A stretch of DNA of 64,000 bases, taken from Patescibacteria group bacterium (GTDB lineage: Bacteria; Patescibacteriota; Minisyncoccia; Moranbacterales; JAKLHP01). How positions within the stretch are numbered: position 1 is the stretch's first letter; the number at the start of each line of letters is the position of its first letter. The stretch lies in contig JAZDKA010000010.1 of NCBI GenBank assembly GCA_043803385.1, positions 989 through 64,988 of the forward strand, in the 5' to 3' direction. Position numbers and translations under genes: made by a program. Positions 25,221 to 42,709 of the stretch are shown piece after piece. Below the pieces are notes generated by a model, which was given only the letters and a program-made list of their open reading frames with translations, searched no databases and had not been told where the DNA came from.

Positions 25221-25715
25221 ATGAACGGAGTTCTTAAAATTCGAACAATATCTACCGCACAGAGGCATTGCACTAATGTTCCGAGAAGAAGATTCCCGCA
25301 TTGATAGAATTGGAGGTTCTAATTTATCAGAAAAAACAATCTTCATAAAGACGTCCATTGCGGAAAACGACTTAAGGTTCGAAGGGCATTTCCCCGAAAG
25401 AAAGATTCTTCCGGGTCACTGGCAACTGGAAATGATGTGCCAGGCAGCAGTTATCCTGGTAAAATACCTGGACCAGAAACTAAAGGACTTCCTGCCCTAT
25501 CTCATGTTGAGAGTCTAAGGCTAGTCAGACCAGTTTTCGCTAAAATCCAGCCCGTCGAGCTTGTGGTGAAAGTTGCTCTCATGGAGATAATGGAGGAACC
25601 AAGCACATCACACTCTCTTATGTATCTTTTCAGAGGAAATTTAGAGTACGTTGGAGGAAGACTAATATCGGGAGCCAGTTTTACTGGTATGAAGCATACT
25701 CTAAAAGATAAGTAG
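25221..25715 (+). pseudogene. fabZ: 3-hydroxyacyl-ACP dehydratase FabZ-like gene disrupted by at least two frameshifts
   Basis: LPHR, FEGHFPERKILPGHWQLEMMCQAA and LRLVRPVFAKIQPVELV hotdog motifs are spread over three reading frames; GC-rich. Confidence 0.6.
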
Positions 25716-25736: not shown

Positions 25737-26000
25737 ATGACTGAACTAGAAAGGTTAAGGGATTTTCTTTCTCAAAAAATCTTAGATTTTACAAGAAAAG
25801 AATGTGTTCCGGAAGAATTGATATCAGCACATTTCGCTGTAGATAATATGATAAGTATGCTTCAGCTCTATAATAAGAAAAGTGTTGAAGATATCAAGAA
25901 AGAATTCGGATTTCCACCGGATTCACTGGAACCAGAAAGAAAAAGTTTCTACGGGAATGATCTTCTCGAGAAATCTTTAAAAAGAGGTATCGAGGGATAA
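25737..26000 (+). CDS. Hypothetical protein (87 aa)
   Basis: AAAGGAG SD; followed by a bidirectional terminator. Confidence 0.5.
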   Translation: MTELERLRDFLSQKILDFTRKECVPEELISAHFAVDNMISMLQLYNKKSVEDIKKEFGFPPDSLEPERKSFYGNDLLEKSLKRGIEG

Positions 26001-26007
26001 ATAAAAA

Positions 26008-26050
26008 AGAAAAGGGCGGGCTCATTTAACGCTGTGAGCACCGCCCTTAT
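26008..26050. terminator. Bidirectional terminator hairpin
   Basis: AAGGGCGGGCTCA...TGAGCACCGCCCTT with T-runs on both strands; ends the plus-strand 25737 gene and the minus-strand peptide cluster. Confidence 0.6.
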
Positions 26051-26052
26051 TT

Positions 26053-26241
26053 TTATCTTTCATGCGGTTCGCCAGTCGGACCGTATTCAATTTCAATTTC
26101 AGCAGAACTGGCATCAGATTTGCGAAAGAGATTCGGAAGACAGTTAATAATCGCTGCGATAATTATAGAAATAATCACGACCGCTAAAACTACTCCCATT
26201 TTTTCACCTCCTGACCCCAGAATTTTTTCAATTATAGTCAT
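26053..26241 (-). CDS. Small hydrophobic peptide (62 aa, or 48 aa from the internal MGVV start)
   Basis: GGAGGTG SD before the internal M; one TM helix. Confidence 0.45.
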   Translation of the reverse strand: MTIIEKILGSGGEKMGVVLAVVIISIIIAAIINCLPNLFRKSDASSAEIEIEYGPTGEPHER

Positions 26242-26252
26242 GGCAATCCCCT

Positions 26253-26366
26253 TTAAGCTTCATCGATAAAACTAATCGCATCCCGATAATCCTTGTCGAA
26301 GATTATCAGGAAGCAAAAAACGATAACACCTACAATCCATAAAACCGCTTCTTTTGCAATCGTCAT
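26253..26366 (-). CDS. Small hydrophobic peptide (37 aa)
   Basis: GAGGAGGT SD 5 nt upstream; single TM helix; not in the supplied ORF track (below 60 aa). Confidence 0.4.
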   Translation of the reverse strand: MTIAKEAVLWIVGVIVFCFLIIFDKDYRDAISFIDEA

Positions 26367-26387
26367 CGCATACCTCCTCTTATCCTT

Positions 26388-26516
26388 TTAAAATATGCTT
26401 GTCATCTTTGAAAAAATCTTAGACCATCCTATATTGCAGATGGTCATCGTCATTAATAATAGCAACAGAAAAAAGATTAAGATTCCAAAAAATCTCTTTA
26501 TGAATTTTTCTACCAT
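26388..26516 (-). CDS. Small hydrophobic peptide (42 aa)
   Basis: TAGGAGGTG SD 4 nt upstream; single TM helix; not in the supplied ORF track (below 60 aa). Confidence 0.4.
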   Translation of the reverse strand: MVEKFIKRFFGILIFFLLLLLMTMTICNIGWSKIFSKMTSIF

Positions 26517-26579
26517 AAACACCTCCTAAAAATTGATAATGAACAGAAAACTATCCTCCAAAGGCAGTATTTCTATGCT

Positions 26580-26888
26580 CTATCCAATTTTAGTAATCTC
26601 TACTTCTGTGAATGGTTGTCTGTGGCCGAATTTTACCTTATATCTCTTCTTTGCCTTGTGTTTGATTCCCCAGACTTTTTTAGCTCTGTCCTGTTTTAAA
26701 ATCTTTCCTTCCACCTTCGCGCCTTTGATAAATGGAGCGCCGACTTTGGCTTCCTTTTCATTTCCAACAAAGAGAACTTTGGAAAATCCAAATTTTCCTC
26801 CAACTTCTCCTTCAATTTTTTCAATCTTGATTTTTGTTCCTTCTTTGACCAGATATTGCTTTCCTCCGGTCTTGATCACTGCTAGCAT
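26580..26888 (-). CDS. rplU: 50S ribosomal protein L21
   Basis: MLAVIKTGGKQY...FGHRQPFT signature; start chosen at the internal Met. Confidence 0.85.
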   Translation of the reverse strand: MLAVIKTGGKQYLVKEGTKIKIEKIEGEVGGKFGFSKVLFVGNEKEAKVGAPFIKGAKVEGKILKQDRAKKVWGIKHKAKKRYKVKFGHRQPFTEVEITKIG

Positions 26889-26956
26889 AATGTTTGCGAA
26901 ATATAAATTATAAATACCTGATAACCCTATCATTTAAGGCAAAAAGTGTCAATCTT

Positions 26957-27151
26957 TTAGCACTTATAATATATGCCTTTCTTTTTCATATCTTCTTCTA
27001 CTTTATAAGACTTCCTGTCGAAATTCTTTCCAACATCAGGATGATTCATTATTTTATTTACAAGTTCGCTCCTGTTCATAGTTGACATCTTCTTACTTTC
27101 TTCATACTCAAATCCTAAATTTTCTAAGTATTTTTTTACTTCATTACTCAT
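26957..27151 (-). CDS. Hypothetical small protein
   Basis: 64-aa ORF only. Confidence 0.35.
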   Translation of the reverse strand: MSNEVKKYLENLGFEYEESKKMSTMNRSELVNKIMNHPDVGKNFDRKSYKVEEDMKKKGIYYKC

Positions 27152-27229: not shown

Positions 27230-27511
27230 TTATACTATCCCGTTTAATTTCTTTTTTAGAGCTTTTATATCATTATCTATCTTCATTTTATCGTTTTCGA
27301 TCCTGATAATTTCTTGTTTTTTTTCTGAAATTTTAGTTTGAAGCACAGCTAATTCCCTCATTAGCCTCTTGAGGTTCATTTTTTCCGCTTCTATTTCTGT
27401 TTCTTTTTTCTTCAAATCAGAATCAGCAATGGTAATTTCAAATTGAATGCGCTGTCTTTGAGCATGAGCATCTTGTCCGTTTGAGTCTGAATTTTGTGCG
27501 TTATCTTGCAT
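27230..27511 (-). CDS. Hypothetical coiled-coil protein
   Basis: Start at MQDNAQ; heptad-rich sequence. Confidence 0.4.
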   Translation of the reverse strand: MQDNAQNSDSNGQDAHAQRQRIQFEITIADSDLKKKETEIEAEKMNLKRLMRELAVLQTKISEKKQEIIRIENDKMKIDNDIKALKKKLNGIV

Positions 27512-28574
27512 AAAAAATAGTTCCTCCTCCCAACACTTTTCCTTTTTCTGAATAAAATACTGCCGACTGGCCGGGAGTAATGGCTCTTTGCAGTTTTTCA
27601 AATTCAACTTTGTCTTTGTTTATTATAGCACGAAATAATGGACTTTGATAGCGAGTGCGAATAAGTGTTTTGAAAGGAAATTTTGGCTTTTCTTCTACCC
27701 AATTAACTTCTTTCAGGATCATCTTCTTGCTAAAAAGTTCTTTCTTGTCTCCTACAACCAGCCTATTTTTGCCAGAATCCTTCTTTATTACGTAATATGG
27801 ACCGTTTCCGCCCAATTTTATTCCCTTTCTTTGCCCGATAGTGTAAAATGGCAACCCTTCATGATTTCCGAGAACATTTCCTTTTAAATCACAAATTTTG
27901 CCTTTCTTAGGGCTTAAACTTTTTTTCAAAAATGTTTCGAAGCCTTTTTCAGGGATAAAACAAATGTCTTGTGATTCTTTTTTATTATGGACTGGCAAAC
28001 CAAATTTCTTGGCAATTTTTCGAACCTCAATCTTGGTATAATCCCCTAGCGGAAACAAAATTTTTGACAATTGTTTCTGCGATAATTTATATAGAAAATA
28101 ACTTTGATCCTTACTTTTATCCTTCGCTTCAAACAATCCAAAACTTTTAACTTTTAACTTTTCACTTTTAACTTCGCGCGCTTGCGCGTAATGTCCCGTT
28201 GCCACAAAATCCGCTTTTAGAAGCATCATTTTTTCAAATAAAACTTTGAATTTTATTTCTTTATTGCAAACCACGCACGGATTAGGAGTATTCCCCTTTT
28301 TTAATTCATCTAAAAAAAAGTCTACGACTTTCTTTTTAAATTCATTATGAACATTTAAAACATAAAAGGGAATTCCTAAAATTTGAGCAACTTTTCTGGC
28401 GCTTTCAATCGACTCCAGTGAGCAGCACCTATTCTCATAATTTTTGTCCAGCGAAACATCTTTCCAGAAGTTCATAAAAACTCCAGTAACATCATATCCT
28501 TCTTTCTTGAGCATTACGGCAACTACTGAAGAATCAACTCCTCCAGACATTGCGACAATTACTTTCTTATTCAT
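27501..28574 (-). CDS. mnmA: tRNA-specific 2-thiouridylase MnmA
   Basis: PP-loop AMSGGVDSS, conserved Cys, MnmA C-terminal domains. Confidence 0.85.
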   Translation of the reverse strand: MNKKVIVAMSGGVDSSVVAVMLKKEGYDVTGVFMNFWKDVSLDKNYENRCCSLESIESARKVAQILGIPFYVLNVHNEFKKKVVDFFLDELKKGNTPNPCVVCNKEIKFKVLFEKMMLLKADFVATGHYAQAREVKSEKLKVKSFGLFEAKDKSKDQSYFLYKLSQKQLSKILFPLGDYTKIEVRKIAKKFGLPVHNKKESQDICFIPEKGFETFLKKSLSPKKGKICDLKGNVLGNHEGLPFYTIGQRKGIKLGGNGPYYVIKKDSGKNRLVVGDKKELFSKKMILKEVNWVEEKPKFPFKTLIRTRYQSPLFRAIINKDKVEFEKLQRAITPGQSAVFYSEKGKVLGGGTIFYAR

Positions 28575-30447
28575 CCTTGCTTTTTTTAATAAGTTGTCTT
28601 AATTCTTCTAAATTAACCGCCGGTTTTTTGTGGGTTAGTTTGAATTTTTTCGGCGCGACATACTGAAGCTGGGACAAAGCCAATGGTTTTTCCCCTGAAA
28701 CAAAAGCTTTTCTTTCAACTTTTTTTATTTCTTTCGGTTTAGTATTATTATCGCTTGATGAATTAATGATATGATGGCTTGATGACCTGTCCGCAATGCT
28801 TTGTTTAGCAATGCTAGTAAGACCAATGGCTTGATGATTCAAATCTTGCTGCTGATCCTTGGCCTTTGCCATTGCTCTTTGATAATCCTTGAAGCATTCC
28901 TTGCAAAATGTCGGACGCTGTCCATCTGGCTCAAAAGGAACTTGAATCTTTTCTCCGCAAGTATCACAAACGGTGTCATATAATTTCTTTTCTTCACTGA
29001 CTTTATTATTATCGCCTGTAATAATTTGAGGAAGATTAACTTTTGTTTTCGGAATATTTTTTGAAACAGGCTCTTCTTTTTTAGAAGCTACTACTTTTTC
29101 TCTTGGATGAACAACAATTATATTTTCTCTTTGTGGAGCTATTTTAACAGCTTCTCTCGCTTTTTCTTCAACTAGCATTCCGCTCCAGCGTTTTATCTTT
29201 TCTTCAACTTCCTCTGCTTTGGTAGTATATCTTTCCCTGGACACTTTAATCACTTTTTCCTCATTTTCTTTTGTTGTTTTGACGTCAATCGGAGCAAGGG
29301 TTGTTGCCGAAAAAGCGTTTCCGGCAATTCCGTCTATCATCAACTTTAAGTAGATATTATATTTTGGAAGATTTACAATGTCATTCATTAAAAAAATCGG
29401 ATCGAATTCTTTTTCTAATTCTTCCGCATCGCCTGCCCCAACTCTAAAAGTAATCAGGGTTCCGGCATTTCCAAATATTGCATCTTTAACTTTTTCATCT
29501 ATCTGAAGTATGTATTGGTTGGCTAGAATAATATTTAACCTATATTTTCTGGCTTCGGAAAGGATATTAGCGAAAGATTCAGTGGCAAAATTTTGAAATT
29601 CATCCACATAAAGATAAATATCTTTTCTTTCTTCTTCAGGAATATCAACCCTTCCCATTGCCGCTAACTGGATTTTTGTTATCATCATCGCGCCGATAAG
29701 CGCGCTGTTGTCTTCGCCAATCCTTCCTTTGGAAAGATTCATAATCAGTATTTTTTGATTATCCATTACTTCCCGGACATCGAAAGATGATTTGGTCTGC
29801 CCGACAATATTTCGAATCAGAGAACTGGAAAGGAACTGCCCAACTTTGTTTTGAATTGGAGAAATAACTTCTTGAAGCACTCTTTCATTCCATTTAGGGA
29901 ATTCATCTACCCAAAAAGAGCGGACGACCGGATCAGTTATTTTTTCAACTATTCTCTTAAGGTAATTTTTGTCGACCAGCATCCTAGTGACCCCTAAAAG
30001 AGTCGATCCGGGATATTCTAAAAGGGCTAAAATTGCATTTCGAAGTATATATTCAAGCCTTGGCCCCCAAGAATCCGCCCAAATTTTCTTGAAAACTCCA
30101 ACCAGTCCCGAAGCCACTAGATGGCGCTGTTTTGGATCGACGCTTTCCATCACATTAAAAGCAATGGGAAAATCTTGGTCAGCCGGATTAAAATAGATCA
30201 CGTCGTTAATCCTATTTGAAGGAATTGCTTTTATTAGTTTTTCTGCAGTGTCGCCGTGTGGATCAATAAAAACCATTCCTTTTCCGTTCTGAATGTCCTG
30301 AATAGCCATCGTTTCCAAGAGATTCGTCTTTCCCATTCCAGTTTTTCCAATAACATACATATGCCGGCGCCTATCGTCGGTTTTTATTCCAAAAACTCTT
30401 TCTTGGTTTCGAAAATTAGTTTTAGCAAAAAAAGTTATTTCATCCAT
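28567..30447 (-). CDS. VirD4/TraD-like coupling-protein family P-loop ATPase (FtsK/HerA superfamily) with C-terminal zinc ribbon
   Basis: Walker A GKTGMGKT, Walker B IYLYVDEF, TraD-like C-terminal region, CxxC-x17-CxxC. Confidence 0.6.
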   Translation of the reverse strand: MDEITFFAKTNFRNQERVFGIKTDDRRRHMYVIGKTGMGKTNLLETMAIQDIQNGKGMVFIDPHGDTAEKLIKAIPSNRINDVIYFNPADQDFPIAFNVMESVDPKQRHLVASGLVGVFKKIWADSWGPRLEYILRNAILALLEYPGSTLLGVTRMLVDKNYLKRIVEKITDPVVRSFWVDEFPKWNERVLQEVISPIQNKVGQFLSSSLIRNIVGQTKSSFDVREVMDNQKILIMNLSKGRIGEDNSALIGAMMITKIQLAAMGRVDIPEEERKDIYLYVDEFQNFATESFANILSEARKYRLNIILANQYILQIDEKVKDAIFGNAGTLITFRVGAGDAEELEKEFDPIFLMNDIVNLPKYNIYLKLMIDGIAGNAFSATTLAPIDVKTTKENEEKVIKVSRERYTTKAEEVEEKIKRWSGMLVEEKAREAVKIAPQRENIIVVHPREKVVASKKEEPVSKNIPKTKVNLPQIITGDNNKVSEEKKLYDTVCDTCGEKIQVPFEPDGQRPTFCKECFKDYQRAMAKAKDQQQDLNHQAIGLTSIAKQSIADRSSSHHIINSSSDNNTKPKEIKKVERKAFVSGEKPLALSQLQYVAPKKFKLTHKKPAVNLEELRQLIKKSKDE

Positions 30448-30450
30448 AAG

Positions 30451-31734
30451 TTATTTTATCGGCAGATTGGCCGGAGCGCCTCCCAGCTTAGCTTCGACGC
30501 GCGGAATGGAAGGAGCCATAGCGGACATATCAGGCATATGAAAGATAGTGGCAAGTTCCGCTGTGCTCATATCAAATTTTTTTCCAGTCCAATCGCGGTC
30601 AACATATCTTTGAAAAAGAATTCTTTGGCGGTATCTCAATCTTGTTTTCGTCATAAAATACCAGGCGTAGGTCTTGGTTGGATCATAGATACTTATTCCG
30701 GCTGAATGCATATCGGAAAACTGTTTCATTGCTCCCCAAAAACCGCCTACCACAACAGGCTTATCCCAATTATCCCTGGTCCCGATATAAACAAACCTAA
30801 TCTTCGTCTTGAAAAAATTCCTGCCTACATTTTCTTCCAATGCCTTGAGTTTTTCTCTTTCACCGGGCGTTAAGCGGAATTCTAATGGCTGCTCTTCTTT
30901 TTTCTCTTCTGCTGTCGCAAATTCAGGCATTTTGGAGAATCCTTTTATAATATTTCCGAGAACATCTCCAGCGTCATTCATAATTCTTTCGACTGTTGAT
31001 TTTGGCTTTGTTTTTCTCTTGGTTAAAACTTCAATAAATTCTTTTCCCTTTTTTAAAGCCTCTACTTCCTTAATTGGGGTAATAATAATCTGAAACCATA
31101 CCTTCTGGCTGGGCTTAAGATTTCCCAATATTTCCAAAACTGATGACAACGGATCAATCATTTTTCCGGTAACATCTTCCTGAAATCTCATATAAGTCTT
31201 GATTGGCAATGATTCATTTTCCCCAGAAAGTTCAGCATCAGCTCCCCATATTTCCCATTTTTTATTGGGAACTAGTCTGGGAACTTCTTTGGTGTAATCA
31301 TCTGCTTCCACAATTTGAGCATCTGGATACTGGGCATAGATATTGGCTTCTACGAGATCTCTGTCGCTTCTTGGGCCGTGTATATAAAAGTGAATTTTTC
31401 CGCTGTCTCCGACCAACTCCAAAGAAAACCATTCAATAAATCTCCCTTGGATATAAATTTCATTATTGGGAATAGTAGTGATTACTCCGTGGATTCCATT
31501 AAAAAAAGATTCCATTAATTTCGGGCTTTTTTCAATATTCTGGGGAGGAATAATTTCCAAGATAACTTTATCAACTGATCTCCAATATCCTCTGATGACA
31601 TGATCCATCCAAAGCGCTTTGAATGCCCAATATAAAAAAGGAGGCAAAACAAAATACCAAATAGAAGTAAATACTCCTCCAAGCGTAGAAGTTACGTAGG
31701 CAATATCTCTAAAAGAAGAAATTAATATATTCAT
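30451..31734 (-). CDS. Membrane protein co-operonic with the VirD4/TraD-like ATPase
   Basis: 427 aa, N-terminal TM helices; its stop lies 4 bp from the ATPase start. Confidence 0.5.
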   Translation of the reverse strand: MNILISSFRDIAYVTSTLGGVFTSIWYFVLPPFLYWAFKALWMDHVIRGYWRSVDKVILEIIPPQNIEKSPKLMESFFNGIHGVITTIPNNEIYIQGRFIEWFSLELVGDSGKIHFYIHGPRSDRDLVEANIYAQYPDAQIVEADDYTKEVPRLVPNKKWEIWGADAELSGENESLPIKTYMRFQEDVTGKMIDPLSSVLEILGNLKPSQKVWFQIIITPIKEVEALKKGKEFIEVLTKRKTKPKSTVERIMNDAGDVLGNIIKGFSKMPEFATAEEKKEEQPLEFRLTPGEREKLKALEENVGRNFFKTKIRFVYIGTRDNWDKPVVVGGFWGAMKQFSDMHSAGISIYDPTKTYAWYFMTKTRLRYRQRILFQRYVDRDWTGKKFDMSTAELATIFHMPDMSAMAPSIPRVEAKLGGAPANLPIK

Positions 31735-31797
31735 TTTTGTGAATCCGAATTAAATAACGTTGTATCTAAAGGATTTCTTTTTTGCGTTATTTCTTTG

Positions 31798-32844
31798 TTA
31801 TTTCTTTACCGAGTACTCGTTTTTCCCCACTTTTTGGAAAAAATTATTGAGATTTATCATTACGGTTGATTTTTTTACCTTTCTCATTTTCAAAGCTTGC
31901 TCCAAGATATCTTCTTTTCTCATCGGCCTTGAATTTTTTTTCAAAATATCCTCGATTACTTCTCTTACCGTCCCTTTCTCGAAACCCCATTCTGAAAGTG
32001 CATAAGTTCCTCTTCCGACTAAAATAAATCGCTTGTCCCTAATAAGTTCATTATGCACTGTTTGGGGATGGGTTCTTTTCTTTTTATTGAGCTTATATTT
32101 ATCAATTGCTTCTGCAATTTCTTTGAAGTGCATGGGTCTTCCTGTTTCTTTGAGAATTAGGTATATCTTTTCTCTGGTACCCTTCGGAGTTATTTCATCC
32201 CATGATTTGAGCCCCCACTTTTGAAACCTCCCTTTCTTTATTTCAGAGGAAACATCAAGATAATTGAAGAGTTTTTTCGGTTCAATTTCCGTACTTTTTA
32301 AATTAAGTATTTCTTTTACCAATTCCTGATCAGTAAGGGGGCGTTGTTTTTTTTCAAGAATTTCTTTAATCAAATTTTTCGTTTTTCTCCATTCATTTAA
32401 ACTGAACTCCCCATTTGACCAAGATCCTTCAACTTCTCCGAGTATTTCCCTGTACTCAATATTGTCAAAAAGATCAAGAAAAAACTTTAGGGCGCCTCTC
32501 TCTTTTAAATCAGCAGTTTGAGCCATTAATTCTTCTTCTTTAATTATACCACTTTTTTCTTTAATGGTAAACGCCAACTTATTTTTAATTTCCTCAATAA
32601 CATCACTCTTGCCTTTTTTGAGTTTTTTCAAAGTCTCCTTAATTATCTGGCGGACCCTTTCCCTGGTAATATCATACTCCCTGCCTATTTCTTCCAGTGT
32701 TTTGGGATCACCATTTTTTATGCCATATCTTCCCGAAATAATCCCTTTTGGCCTTTCTGGAAATTCCAAAAAAACCCTTTCTAGGGCCGAAAGAAAGCCA
32801 ATATTGGACTTTTTGATAGTGTTTCTAGGATTATTACTTATCAT
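31798..32844 (-). CDS. DNA-binding protein with N-terminal sigma-70 region-4-like HTH and C-terminal HARE-HTH
   Basis: TLEEIGREYDITRERVRQI (sigma region 4.2-like); C-terminal IAEAI...RFILVGRGTYALSEWG (HARE-HTH). Confidence 0.55.
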   Translation of the reverse strand: MISNNPRNTIKKSNIGFLSALERVFLEFPERPKGIISGRYGIKNGDPKTLEEIGREYDITRERVRQIIKETLKKLKKGKSDVIEEIKNKLAFTIKEKSGIIKEEELMAQTADLKERGALKFFLDLFDNIEYREILGEVEGSWSNGEFSLNEWRKTKNLIKEILEKKQRPLTDQELVKEILNLKSTEIEPKKLFNYLDVSSEIKKGRFQKWGLKSWDEITPKGTREKIYLILKETGRPMHFKEIAEAIDKYKLNKKKRTHPQTVHNELIRDKRFILVGRGTYALSEWGFEKGTVREVIEDILKKNSRPMRKEDILEQALKMRKVKKSTVMINLNNFFQKVGKNEYSVKK

Positions 32845-41023: not shown

Positions 41024-42709
41024 TTATTCTTCTTTATTTTTCTTATTCCTCATTACTATCCACATTCTCTCTTCCAGCCAATGAGTTCCGATGAACCGCA
41101 AAATATTCCGCACGATCACAATCGCCGAAAACAGCGAAACCAAAACTCCCAGAATCAAAGTAACTGCAAACCCTTTCACGAATCCGGTTCCGAAAAATAT
41201 CAGGATTATTGAGGTAATGATGGTTGAAAGATTTCCGTCTCTGATACTGGTCCAAGCCCTTTTAAAACCTTCTTCAATGGCGCTGGAAATATTTCTTCCT
41301 CTTCTGATTTCTTCTTTCGTCCTTTCAAAAATCAAAATGTTGGCATCCACTGCCATTCCGATGGAAAGAATAATTCCTGCTATTCCAGACAAAGTTAATG
41401 TTATTTCCCAGGGAGAATAAGCGGAAAGCTTGATTATTGAAACCATTATTGCCGTATAAACAATAAGGGCAAACGATGCGATAATGCCCAGAAATCTATA
41501 ATAAATTATCATGAAAATCATAACTGCGATTAATCCGATTATTCCTGCTTTCAAACTTTTTTGAAGCGACTCCATTCCCAGAGTCGCTTCGACGCTTTGC
41601 TGGGAAACCAAGATTAAGGGAATAGGAAGCGCTCCTTCATTAAGCCTCTGGGCTAGTTGTTTTGCTTCATCCACCGTAAAACTTCCCGTTATTACCGCGT
41701 CTCCGCTGGTGATTTCCGATTGCACTCGCGGAGTGCTGATCGGCTGGCCGTCAAGATAAATAGCAACTGTTTTCTCTAGATTTCTTTTAGTAATGTCGGC
41801 AAATAATTTAGTTCCTTCTGCATCAAATTTTATGGAAACTTCCGGTTCGGAAAGCCCTTGGTTCTGAAAAGTTACGGATGCGCTCTTGAGATTTTTTCCT
41901 GTAAGTCCGGTTGAAACATAAGCCTGGTTAGGAACGTCTTTTTCCTCTATTTTTTTGATTATGTGCCAACCGAATTGAGTTTCTACCAATTGCGGATAAA
42001 TTTGCCCGTCTTTCAAATTTCCTTCAAATAAAACTTTATCAAATTCCGGGACAAATGCTCCTTTCTGGACAAATCCCAAATCCCCTCCGGTTTCTTTTGA
42101 ACCAGGGTCGTCGCTGTTTTCTTTGGCAAGAGTTGTAAAATCTTCTCCGGCTAGAGATTTTTTAAGTATCTCTTCAGCTTTTTTCTTTTGTTCCTCGTCG
42201 TTGAGCTGGGGCTGATCACTTTCGTCAGCAGACGGCAATCCGCCATTTTTGGCAATTAATATATGCGCGGCGTGAATTTCATGGATCAGCTGATTTCCAG
42301 TTCCCTCTTCCTTGAATTCCAAAAACGGAGTATCTTTTATCCTTTGTTTGGCTTCCTCGATATCTTTTACACCCGGAAGTTCTACTATTATCAAATCATC
42401 TTTTCCGGATTTGGCCGTTTGGATAAGCGGTTCTCCGACTCCGAAAGCATTTATTCTTCTTTCAATAACATCCTGGACTCCCTGAAGCGCGTCAGTCTTT
42501 TTGCTGGAATCCAAATTGGAAGTGTCAGCTTTGTATTCCAAATGGATTCCGCCCTGCAAATCCAATCCCAAATTAACTTTGGCTTTATTGAAAAAGTTAT
42601 AAACCGGCTTAATTGGCTTTATTACTTCCGGATATGCCACAAGAACTGCCGAAACTGCCAGTCCTATTATCGTAAAAAATTTGTATCGAAGTTTCTCTCG
42701 AACATTCAT
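41024..42709 (-). CDS. secD: Protein translocase subunit SecD carrying an embedded parvulin-type PPIase domain
   Basis: SecD N- and C-terminal TM regions; internal AAHILI...GGDLGFV...FD...TQFGWHII (PpiC/parvulin signature) at about aa 135-250. Confidence 0.85.
   Translation of the reverse strand: MNVREKLRYKFFTIIGLAVSAVLVAYPEVIKPIKPVYNFFNKAKVNLGLDLQGGIHLEYKADTSNLDSSKKTDALQGVQDVIERRINAFGVGEPLIQTAKSGKDDLIIVELPGVKDIEEAKQRIKDTPFLEFKEEGTGNQLIHEIHAAHILIAKNGGLPSADESDQPQLNDEEQKKKAEEILKKSLAGEDFTTLAKENSDDPGSKETGGDLGFVQKGAFVPEFDKVLFEGNLKDGQIYPQLVETQFGWHIIKKIEEKDVPNQAYVSTGLTGKNLKSASVTFQNQGLSEPEVSIKFDAEGTKLFADITKRNLEKTVAIYLDGQPISTPRVQSEITSGDAVITGSFTVDEAKQLAQRLNEGALPIPLILVSQQSVEATLGMESLQKSLKAGIIGLIAVMIFMIIYYRFLGIIASFALIVYTAIMVSIIKLSAYSPWEITLTLSGIAGIILSIGMAVDANILIFERTKEEIRRGRNISSAIEEGFKRAWTSIRDGNLSTIITSIILIFFGTGFVKGFAVTLILGVLVSLFSAIVIVRNILRFIGTHWLEERMWIVMRNKKNKEE

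Follow-up and report, generated by a model that had tools for sequence, protein, structure and literature searches.

Three tandem candidate genes for single-helix membrane peptides in a fast-changing slot behind rplU of a Moranbacteria-like bacterium

What occupies the space behind the ribosomal protein gene rplU in a bacterium of the candidate phyla radiation (CPR) when the ribosomal protein L27 gene rpmA does not follow it? This question is raised by a 64,000-nucleotide (nt) stretch of contig JAZDKA010000010.1 (hereafter the window; positions 989 to 64,988, assembly GCA_043803385.1) from a Patescibacteria group bacterium whose ribosomal protein L21 is nearest to that of Moranbacteria. Here rplU (26891..26580, minus strand; 103 amino acids [aa]; Pfam PF00829 Ribosomal_L21p, E=3.2e-33; TIGR00061, E=2.5e-31; NCBI entry: MAG 50S ribosomal protein L21) is the first gene of a transcription unit, and three short open reading frames (ORF1 to ORF3) lie downstream of it, which an original prediction, made from the letters of the DNA, had singled out as tandem hydrophobic mini-ORFs. 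On balance, we favor the reading that ORF1-3 are lineage-specific small membrane proteins that form the distal part of the rplU unit, are expressed by read-through past a weakened terminator, and reside in a slot whose content turns over fast.

The block, including rplU, is on the minus strand of the window, and all the features described for the three tandem ORFs (42, 37 and 48 or 62 aa) with their Shine-Dalgarno (SD) sequences were recovered there. ORF1 (26516..26388) encodes a 42-residue peptide (MVEKFIKRFFGILIFFLLLLLMTMTICNIGWSKIFSKMTSIF) with one transmembrane (TM) helix and has TAGGAGGTGTTT ahead of its ATG, with the GGAGG of the SD at 26522..26526. ORF2 (26366..26253) encodes 37 residues (MTIAKEAVLWIVGVIVFCFLIIFDKDYRDAISFIDEA), a TM helix followed by an acidic C-terminal tail, and has GAGGAGGTATGCG ahead of its ATG (SD GAGGAGG, 26379-26373). 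ORF3, which likewise combines one TM helix with an acidic C-terminal tail (SDASSAEIEIEYGPTGEPHER, a tryptic peptide), comes in two forms that both end at 26053: the long form of 62 aa opens behind a weak SD (AAAGGGGA) at the ATG at 26241, whereas the short form of 48 aa opens at an internal CAGGAGGTGAAAAA-ATG at 26199 behind a strong SD (CAGGAGGTG, 26212-26204). With this 48-aa start taken for ORF3, all three ORFs have GGAGG 5-7 nt upstream of the ATG. The peptide with a Gly-Gly segment (MTIIEKILGSGG...), which the original prediction had called the first of the three, does exist, but it is ORF3, the last ORF in transcription order. The interval is tiled, with gaps of 21 nt between ORF1 and ORF2 and of 11 nt between the ORF2 stop and the long ORF3 start, and only 5 nt separate the ORF3 stop codon from the stem of a bidirectional intrinsic terminator, T2 (26047..26003, both strands; inverted repeat I1). 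T2 is as strong as had been proposed, on the minus strand (-25.8 kcal/mol, z -5.0) and on the plus strand (-27.3 kcal/mol, z -6.45), and serves in common the ORF block and a convergent 87-aa gene that ends at 26000. The prediction of a single TM helix per peptide also held, since each ORF encodes one hydrophobic stretch, with Kyte-Doolittle maxima of 2.7-3.3 (17-residue window). No other SD-led intergenic small ORF in the 64 kb reaches TM-grade hydropathy (all at most 2.1). The ORFs thus fall within the descriptive class of small membrane proteins (at most 60 aa, one predicted TM helix, own ribosome-binding site, operon location). The 62-aa form of ORF3 is known at NCBI as hypothetical protein V1804_01360 (MFH0969133.1), and it is the only one of the three present in a collection of 15 billion proteins, from which ORF1 and ORF2 are absent.

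Is this arrangement more than an accident of sequence? The motif GGAGG-N4-8-ATG, a start type used by most real genes of this genome, occurs 25 times in the window compared to 7.35 +/- 2.56 times in dinucleotide shuffles, and three such sites are found in the 464 nt of the ORF block, where chance predicts about 0.03 on one strand. The observation is real and not due to chance, and the composition profile of the window is unremarkable. We scored coding potential with a 3-periodic Markov model trained on the long ORFs of the window with stop codons excluded, for which 141 spurious ORFs of similar size gave the background (mean -3.1, 95th percentile 2.0), rplU a reference value of 8.3 and windows of real TM-coding sequence a mean of 2.7. 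ORF3 scores 6.1 in its 48-aa and 7.2 in its 62-aa form, more than any of the 141 spurious ORFs, and ORF2 scores 3.88, the top of its six frames and a value reached by 2.8% of the spurious ORFs; judged against this background, both therefore look like genes. We conclude that the three ORFs are very probably real translation units for single-pass membrane peptides.

How would such cistrons be transcribed? Between rplU and ORF1 sits a hairpin, T1 (26544..26572, minus strand; alignments A1 and A2), that is absent from the original description of the locus and represents a weakened copy of a clade-conserved rplU terminator. Across relatives, 12 pairs of the T1 stem can be aligned, five of them with compensatory changes, and the single pair broken to CA in alignment A2 is the row of the window. 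In the copy of the related locus L161 the hairpin is strong (-17.9 kcal/mol, z -5), whereas in the window a C.A mismatch takes the place of one C-G pair and the U-tract is broken up (UUUUCUG); the window segment alone has a z of -0.19, and the hairpin nonetheless forms in the 535-nt fold. Because of the mismatch and the interrupted U-tract, T1 of the window is probably leakier than its relatives. No promoter-like site was found on the minus strand between rplU and ORF1, and since the ORF1 SD follows T1 at a distance of about 25-30 nt, leaving no room for a promoter, expression must be by read-through. The position of this SD is itself conserved in the clade, AGGAGG recurring at the same aligned place past T1 across relatives (alignment A1, columns 101-110), and the start and SD region of ORF1 is unstructured (z +1.36).

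These elements suggest a simple order of events for the unit, which would comprise rplU, the leaky T1, the three short cistrons and the strong T2. Transcription from the rplU promoter would partly pass the weakened T1 and yield an mRNA covering ORF1-3, on which ribosomes would start independently at three strong and correctly spaced SD/ATG sites, with possible coupling between the ORF2 stop and the long ORF3 start 11 nt beyond it. The products would be three single-pass membrane peptides of 42, 37 and 48 or 62 aa at a level below that of L21, and T2 would close the unit. We infer that all three ORFs are translated and that their products probably insert into the membrane. Their role there, by analogy with known small membrane proteins, may be that of accessory or modulating subunits in larger membrane proteins and not that of toxins or exported peptides. 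Of the identities offered by the original prediction, small membrane regulators are in part sustained: the products are very probably small single-helix membrane peptides, and a regulator role, our best functional guess, is drawn by analogy only.

We next asked what occupies the same slot, between rplU and the convergent recR, in related genomes. Among the matches listed by genome and metagenome scans with L21, relatives were at most 75% identical in L21 and none carried a comparable ORF triplet. A protein search gave closer relatives with L21 79-88% identical, whose loci were then fetched from contigs. In those with L21 82-88% identical, synteny is maintained in the order sigma70_r4/HARE helix-turn-helix (HTH) gene, DUF8128 gene, TrwB-like ATPase gene, mnmA, two small genes, rplU, slot, terminator, and the convergent recR and dnaB. 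In eight related lineages the slot contains one to three SD-led single-TM ORFs followed by a terminator: one ORF in L161 (82 aa), L162 (82 aa, with the SD duplicated by a 103-nt insertion), L169 (75 aa), L174 (54 aa) and L179 (67 aa), two in L168 (38 and 32 aa) and L172 (63 and 37 aa), and three in L166 (41, 81 and 32 aa). L173 and L175 have no SD-led single-TM ORF in the slot on this strand. The conservation check proposed with the original prediction thus had a divided outcome: the reading frames of the window are not conserved, but the first SD is conserved in position and is followed in the same slot by non-homologous SD-led TM mini-ORFs.

One gene recurs directly 3' of rplU and defines what we call family A, 54-82 aa long and present in L161 (5374-5622) and L162, L166 (5547-5792), L169 (5426-5653), L174 (3373-3537) and L179 (411-614). 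Its members have an N-terminal TM helix, then FCRPYP, an acidic ADYEHE stretch and a C-terminal TGY[FY]N..P.FF, and purifying selection acts on them (dN/dS 0.18-0.43), which shows that genuine membrane-protein genes under selection do occupy the slot. Eight mini-ORFs from the relatives, including family A, gave no significant Pfam match, and the slot protein of L161 gave no significant match in PHROGs. We conclude that, throughout this Moranbacteria-like clade, a rapidly turning over slot for small membrane proteins lies between rplU and the convergent recR.

The turnover is exemplified by two near-identical genomes, L162 (5165-5296) and L161 (5350-5373), between which an insertion of about 103 nt separates the conserved SD from the family A start in the former; it duplicates the SD (aaggagggg), is in frame with the gene downstream and, read in another frame, encodes a hydrophobic stretch. 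Upstream of the slot, the window (28567-32844, minus strand) and L161, L166 and L169 encode a sigma70_r4 and HARE-HTH protein, a DUF8128 protein (427 aa) and a TrwB/VirD4-like ATPase with a treble-clef zinc finger, and this block upstream of mnmA-rplU is conserved in all close relatives, with no virB4 among the ORFs scanned. Two small genes separate mnmA from rplU in the window (27230-27607 and 26957-27151, both minus strand), a coiled-coil protein of about 93 aa and one of 64 aa, neither with a family match; all close relatives have genes of like size at this place (86-100 aa and 58-85 aa), as compared by size and position only.

In position, the window ORFs agree with family A: they share the slot, the strand and the SD position, and both end at the terminator facing recR. 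ORF3 in addition is laid out like the family, its N-terminal TM helix leading into a basic segment and this into an acidic one. By contrast, the window lacks the ADYEHE and TGY[FY]N motifs, and the family consists of one gene of 54-82 aa rather than three of 37-62 aa. DNA similarity between the window and its relatives stops about 45 nt past the rplU stop, and a six-frame hmmsearch with the family A profile gave no match in 26053-26530 at E<=10. What likeness there is resides in ORF3, whose TM segment ISIIIAAI resembles the LSVVIAAI and LSLIIAAI of family A and whose tail is a loose echo of A[DE].E.E...TG, and in a 32-nt stretch 78% identical to L169. A juxtamembrane cysteine common to most mini-ORFs is not significant (p ~0.08). 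The profile gave 3.6-3.9 bits for ORF3, 3.7 for ORF1 and 2.7 for ORF2, values equalled by 233-267, 222 and 954, respectively, of 2000 shuffles that preserved the TM and tail segments. Since the profile does no better with the real peptides than with shuffles, the window ORFs are positional analogues and not demonstrable homologues of family A.

Might ORF1-3 nevertheless be decayed or rearranged remnants of the ancestral slot gene and its duplicates, with ORF1 and ORF2 being halves of a two-TM protein into which a nonsense mutation or an error of assembly has put a stop? ORF1 and ORF2 do share a frame across a single TAA, and joined they would give an 87-aa helical hairpin with a basic loop, KDKRRY; the ORF3 TM segment and the stretch shared with L169 point the same way, as does a neighboring hotdog-fold gene (25276-25715), which is itself probably frameshifted. 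Set against this, the family A profile scores and the failure of any other frame to match the family speak for no such descent, decay does not make a perfect SD and ATG such as every fragment has for itself, the joined ORF1-ORF2 protein has no family match, and two ORFs share a frame by chance in one case out of three. We regard this explanation as improbable.

Searches with the ORFs themselves returned little. Neither 5.8 billion clusters nor 1.84 billion representatives (the latter by full phmmer) contained a match to ORF3 other than ORF3 itself, and no candidate in the protein collection shared 5-residue words with ORF1. In Pfam, NCBIfam, PHROGs and PADLOC, nothing significant was found for ORF1-3 or the ORF1-ORF2 fusion, the only matches being hydrophobic and below threshold; the phage and plasmid collections gave no match by distant blastn. 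Rfam at E<=1 gave only sub-threshold noise between 25000 and 28000, and there are no tRNA or tmRNA genes. ORF1-3 are new, family-less examples of the general small-membrane-protein class.

Several of our results count against the favored reading of ORF1-3. No homologue was found even in the syntenic slot of the closest relatives, where tblastn and blastp gave TM-composition matches only, and the nearest relative available is only 88% identical in L21. The agreement with family A, tested against the segment-preserving shuffles, is not significant (p ~0.12 for ORF3, 0.11 for ORF1 and 0.48 for ORF2). ORF1 has a coding score of -1.37, a value reached by 28% of the spurious ORFs and not the top of its six frames, and as a gene it is the weakest of the three and ambiguous, its case resting mainly on its SD, its ATG and the unstructured start region. 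No partner gene is adjacent, and the accessory role is argued by analogy only. Finally, stable hairpins lie within the first two ORFs, so that part of the region could act as RNA. The one in ORF1 (26445..26422, minus strand) is followed by a U-rich tract and is terminator-like (-12.6 kcal/mol, z -2.7, equalled by 1 of 200 shuffles); the one in ORF2 (26314..26278, minus strand) is a strong stem-loop of 17 pairs (-24.1 kcal/mol including its flank, z -3.98, equalled by none of 200 shuffles) that occurs once in the window and is not a repeated element. A repeat search found nothing besides the hairpins, and the sense RNA of 535 nt as a whole is modestly structured (z -2.0). The internal hairpins of ORF1 and ORF2 could grade expression as attenuators, could serve in processing or stability, or could be relics.

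Much of this evidence also bears on the idea that the ORFs are proto-genes or translational noise. On this account, the conserved SD behind the leaky T1 and later SD-like sequences drive whatever frame is open, a moderately T-rich sequence yields hydrophobic peptides by default, and the ORFs, ORF1 in particular, are young, unselected and without specific function. The first SD keeps its position while different genomes have non-homologous ORFs following it, the ORFs of the window are orphans without exception, ORF1 cannot be told from spurious ORFs by its coding score, and DNA homology to the relatives is gone so soon after the rplU stop. Yet the codon structure of ORF2 and ORF3 is gene-like, drift predicts less order than is seen in three flawless, optimally spaced SDs, closely tiled ORFs and a stop codon right at the terminator, and other genes of the slot are under purifying selection. 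We consider noise rather unlikely, and retain the reading of ORF1-3 as lineage-specific small membrane proteins.

A broader and tentative proposal, which we put forward as a rather unlikely possibility, would make the rplU 3' region of the Moranbacteria-like clade a "cradle" of small membrane-protein genes and ORF1-3 a snapshot of gene birth and turnover in a genome-reduced bacterium. The leaky terminator and the fixed SD would give any sequence behind them low-level constitutive transcription and translation, and single-TM cistrons would be born, duplicated, replaced and occasionally fixed, as family A was.

Does the lack of rpmA then mark this locus as exceptional? As the original prediction had observed, no L27-like sequence follows L21: neither a six-frame motif scan (NGRDS, RQRG) nor tblastn with the L27 of B. 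subtilis and E. coli found one in the window. The same tblastn found none in the 20 rplU loci of close relatives (0/20). Among 80 genome loci fetched with L21, 55 have L27 directly downstream of rplU, none of them CPR-labelled, and among the matches listed none of the 17 CPR-labelled rplU loci has L27 in its flanks. The expectation of rpmA at this place, which the original prediction had voiced, thus fails, and rplU without an adjacent rpmA is a trait of the lineage and not an anomaly. One locus, L001 (CAZUWR010000001.1), is labelled "uncultured Bdellovibrionales" and encodes an L21 70% identical to that of the window, with no rpmA beside rplU, as in CPR genomes; this bin may be mislabelled or contaminated.

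On the far side of T2, the 87-aa orphan that converges on it (25737-26000, plus strand; NCBI hypothetical V1804_01355) and a 66-aa convergent ORF of L179 have a C-terminal motif in common, F[FY]G.[ND]LL.KSLK[KR]GIEG (E=1e-5), with a weaker likeness to a 41-aa ORF of L174, indicating a second small fast-evolving family on the recR side of the slot. The hotdog-fold gene beyond it (plus strand; FabZ/MaoC-like, "FEGHFPERKILPGHW") is split into overlapping frames of 80 and 92 aa, and its N-terminal half matches an intact 164-aa gene of L173 (1181-1675, minus strand; E=5e-8); a frameshifted pseudogene or a mistake in assembly is the probable explanation. Farther away, at 41024-42709 (minus strand), the window encodes a SecD whose residues 143-256 form a PpiC-type peptidyl-prolyl isomerase (Rotamase) domain, inserted with SecD_1st on one side and the P1 head subdomain on the other, an unusual fusion of translocon subunit and foldase.

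Much of what CPR genomes encode is "dark" proteome, and the host-dependent lifestyle of these bacteria is thought to be rooted in membrane and surface functions. If translated, ORF1-3 would add unannotated, family-less small membrane proteins to such a genome. More useful is what the comparison shows: a terminator and an SD are conserved, and the single-TM cistrons that come after them are non-homologous in different genomes, which makes the slot a compact natural case for studying the origin and turnover of small membrane-protein genes. Two practical lessons concern annotation: a "missing rpmA" can be a lineage trait, and what looks like a double-glycine leader can be an SD that happens to be translated.

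The latter lesson comes from ORF3, to which the original prediction had attributed a double-glycine-type leader and, with it, a possible bacteriocin-like identity. Leaders of this kind are about 15-30 aa long and close with GG, positions -4, -7 and -12 being hydrophobic and -8 acidic. In ORF3 the residues GSGG (9-12) arise from in-frame reading of tcaGGAGGTgaa, the strong SD that serves the internal start at 26199, and within the 12-residue segment MTIIEKILGSGG, position -4 is G and -7 is K, so that only the E at -8 fits. The peptide past the GG is acidic, with a net charge of about -3. The nearby peptidase-domain ABC transporter that the original prediction had suggested looking for did not turn up either, as a Pfam scan of 41 ORFs of at least 99 aa in the 64 kb detected no ABC_tran or Peptidase_C39 domain. 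Compared to class II bacteriocins with their C39-ABC exporters, then, ORF3 is alike in being a small peptide with GG near the N-terminus and differs in having a GG that is an SD in frame, a short leader without the conserved hydrophobic positions, an acidic core and no exporter among the ORFs scanned; we rejected the class II leader, and with it the bacteriocin identity, on these grounds.

A second form of export, an array of VirB2-like or type IV pilin-like subunits, was considered together with the first. Small, divergent VirB2-like pilins are encoded in tandem arrays in Patescibacteria (Quinonero-Coronel et al., 2025, PMC12102498; arrays also in PMC12857230), and the window ORFs resemble these arrays (PMC12102498) in being small, hydrophobic, fast-diverging tandem proteins in a CPR genome; a TrwB/VirD4-like ATPase is encoded 2 kb upstream, and ORF3 weakly matches Pilin_N (PF07790, 17.2 bits vs a cutoff of 25.2, E=0.01). 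However, the described arrays (PMC12102498) match TrbC/VirB2 or T4SS_pilin profiles, encode two helices and mostly lie near virB4, whereas PF04956 and PF18895 matched neither ORF1, ORF2 and the 62-aa ORF3 at E<=1 nor the fusion and the 48-aa ORF3 at E<=10, each window ORF has one hydrophobic segment in place of two helices and a signal peptide, and no virB4 was seen nearby, the VirD4/TrwB-like ATPase being the only such component among the ORFs scanned. The type IV prepilin candidate was rejected because the G/FxxxE (G(-1)/E(+5)) motif is absent and the Pilin_N match is below its cutoff; NF007848 gave E=0.07. The exported-peptide reading, in either form, is already largely refuted, and we give it scarcely any weight.

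Are the peptides toxins instead? Type-I-toxin-like products, that is, membrane peptides restrained by antisense RNAs, had also been named as a possible identity. As with type I toxins (Fst/Ldr, TisB, YonT and Hok), the products of the window ORFs are short, with one TM helix and charged ends; some promoter-like hexamers occur on the opposite strand, and ORF3 has a sub-threshold match, the best to any toxin, to NCBIfam NF047537 YonT (E=0.089). That match has 12.9 bits against a cutoff of 45, and no family match of the ORFs rises above threshold; the promoter-like sites are at chance level (10 vs 7.2 +/- 2.5 expected), the antisense strand has no excess structure (z -0.78), and PADLOC gave no match of note. 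Moreover, toxin SDs are normally sequestered, whereas those of the window ORFs are strong and accessible, that of ORF1 being unstructured, and the three ORFs stand in tandem and co-oriented behind a ribosomal protein gene in a housekeeping operon. We consider a toxin function very unlikely.

Two known arrangements remain for comparison with ORF1-3 as lineage-specific small membrane proteins. The operons rplU-ysxB(prp)-rpmA of Bacillota and rplU-rpmA of most bacteria also place genes directly 3' of rplU on the same strand; the window differs from them in having neither L27 nor a Prp-like protease, and CPR genomes are generally without the rplU-rpmA linkage. Bacterial small membrane proteins such as AcrZ, MgrB, KdpF and CydX are at most about 50-60 aa long, have a single TM helix and constitute a functional class and not a homologous family. 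Although the window ORFs have no sequence relationship to these proteins and lie behind a ribosomal gene and a leaky terminator with no obvious partner complex adjacent, they agree with them in size, in their single helix, in having their own SD, in their operonic location and, for ORF1 and ORF2, in having been overlooked by gene callers.

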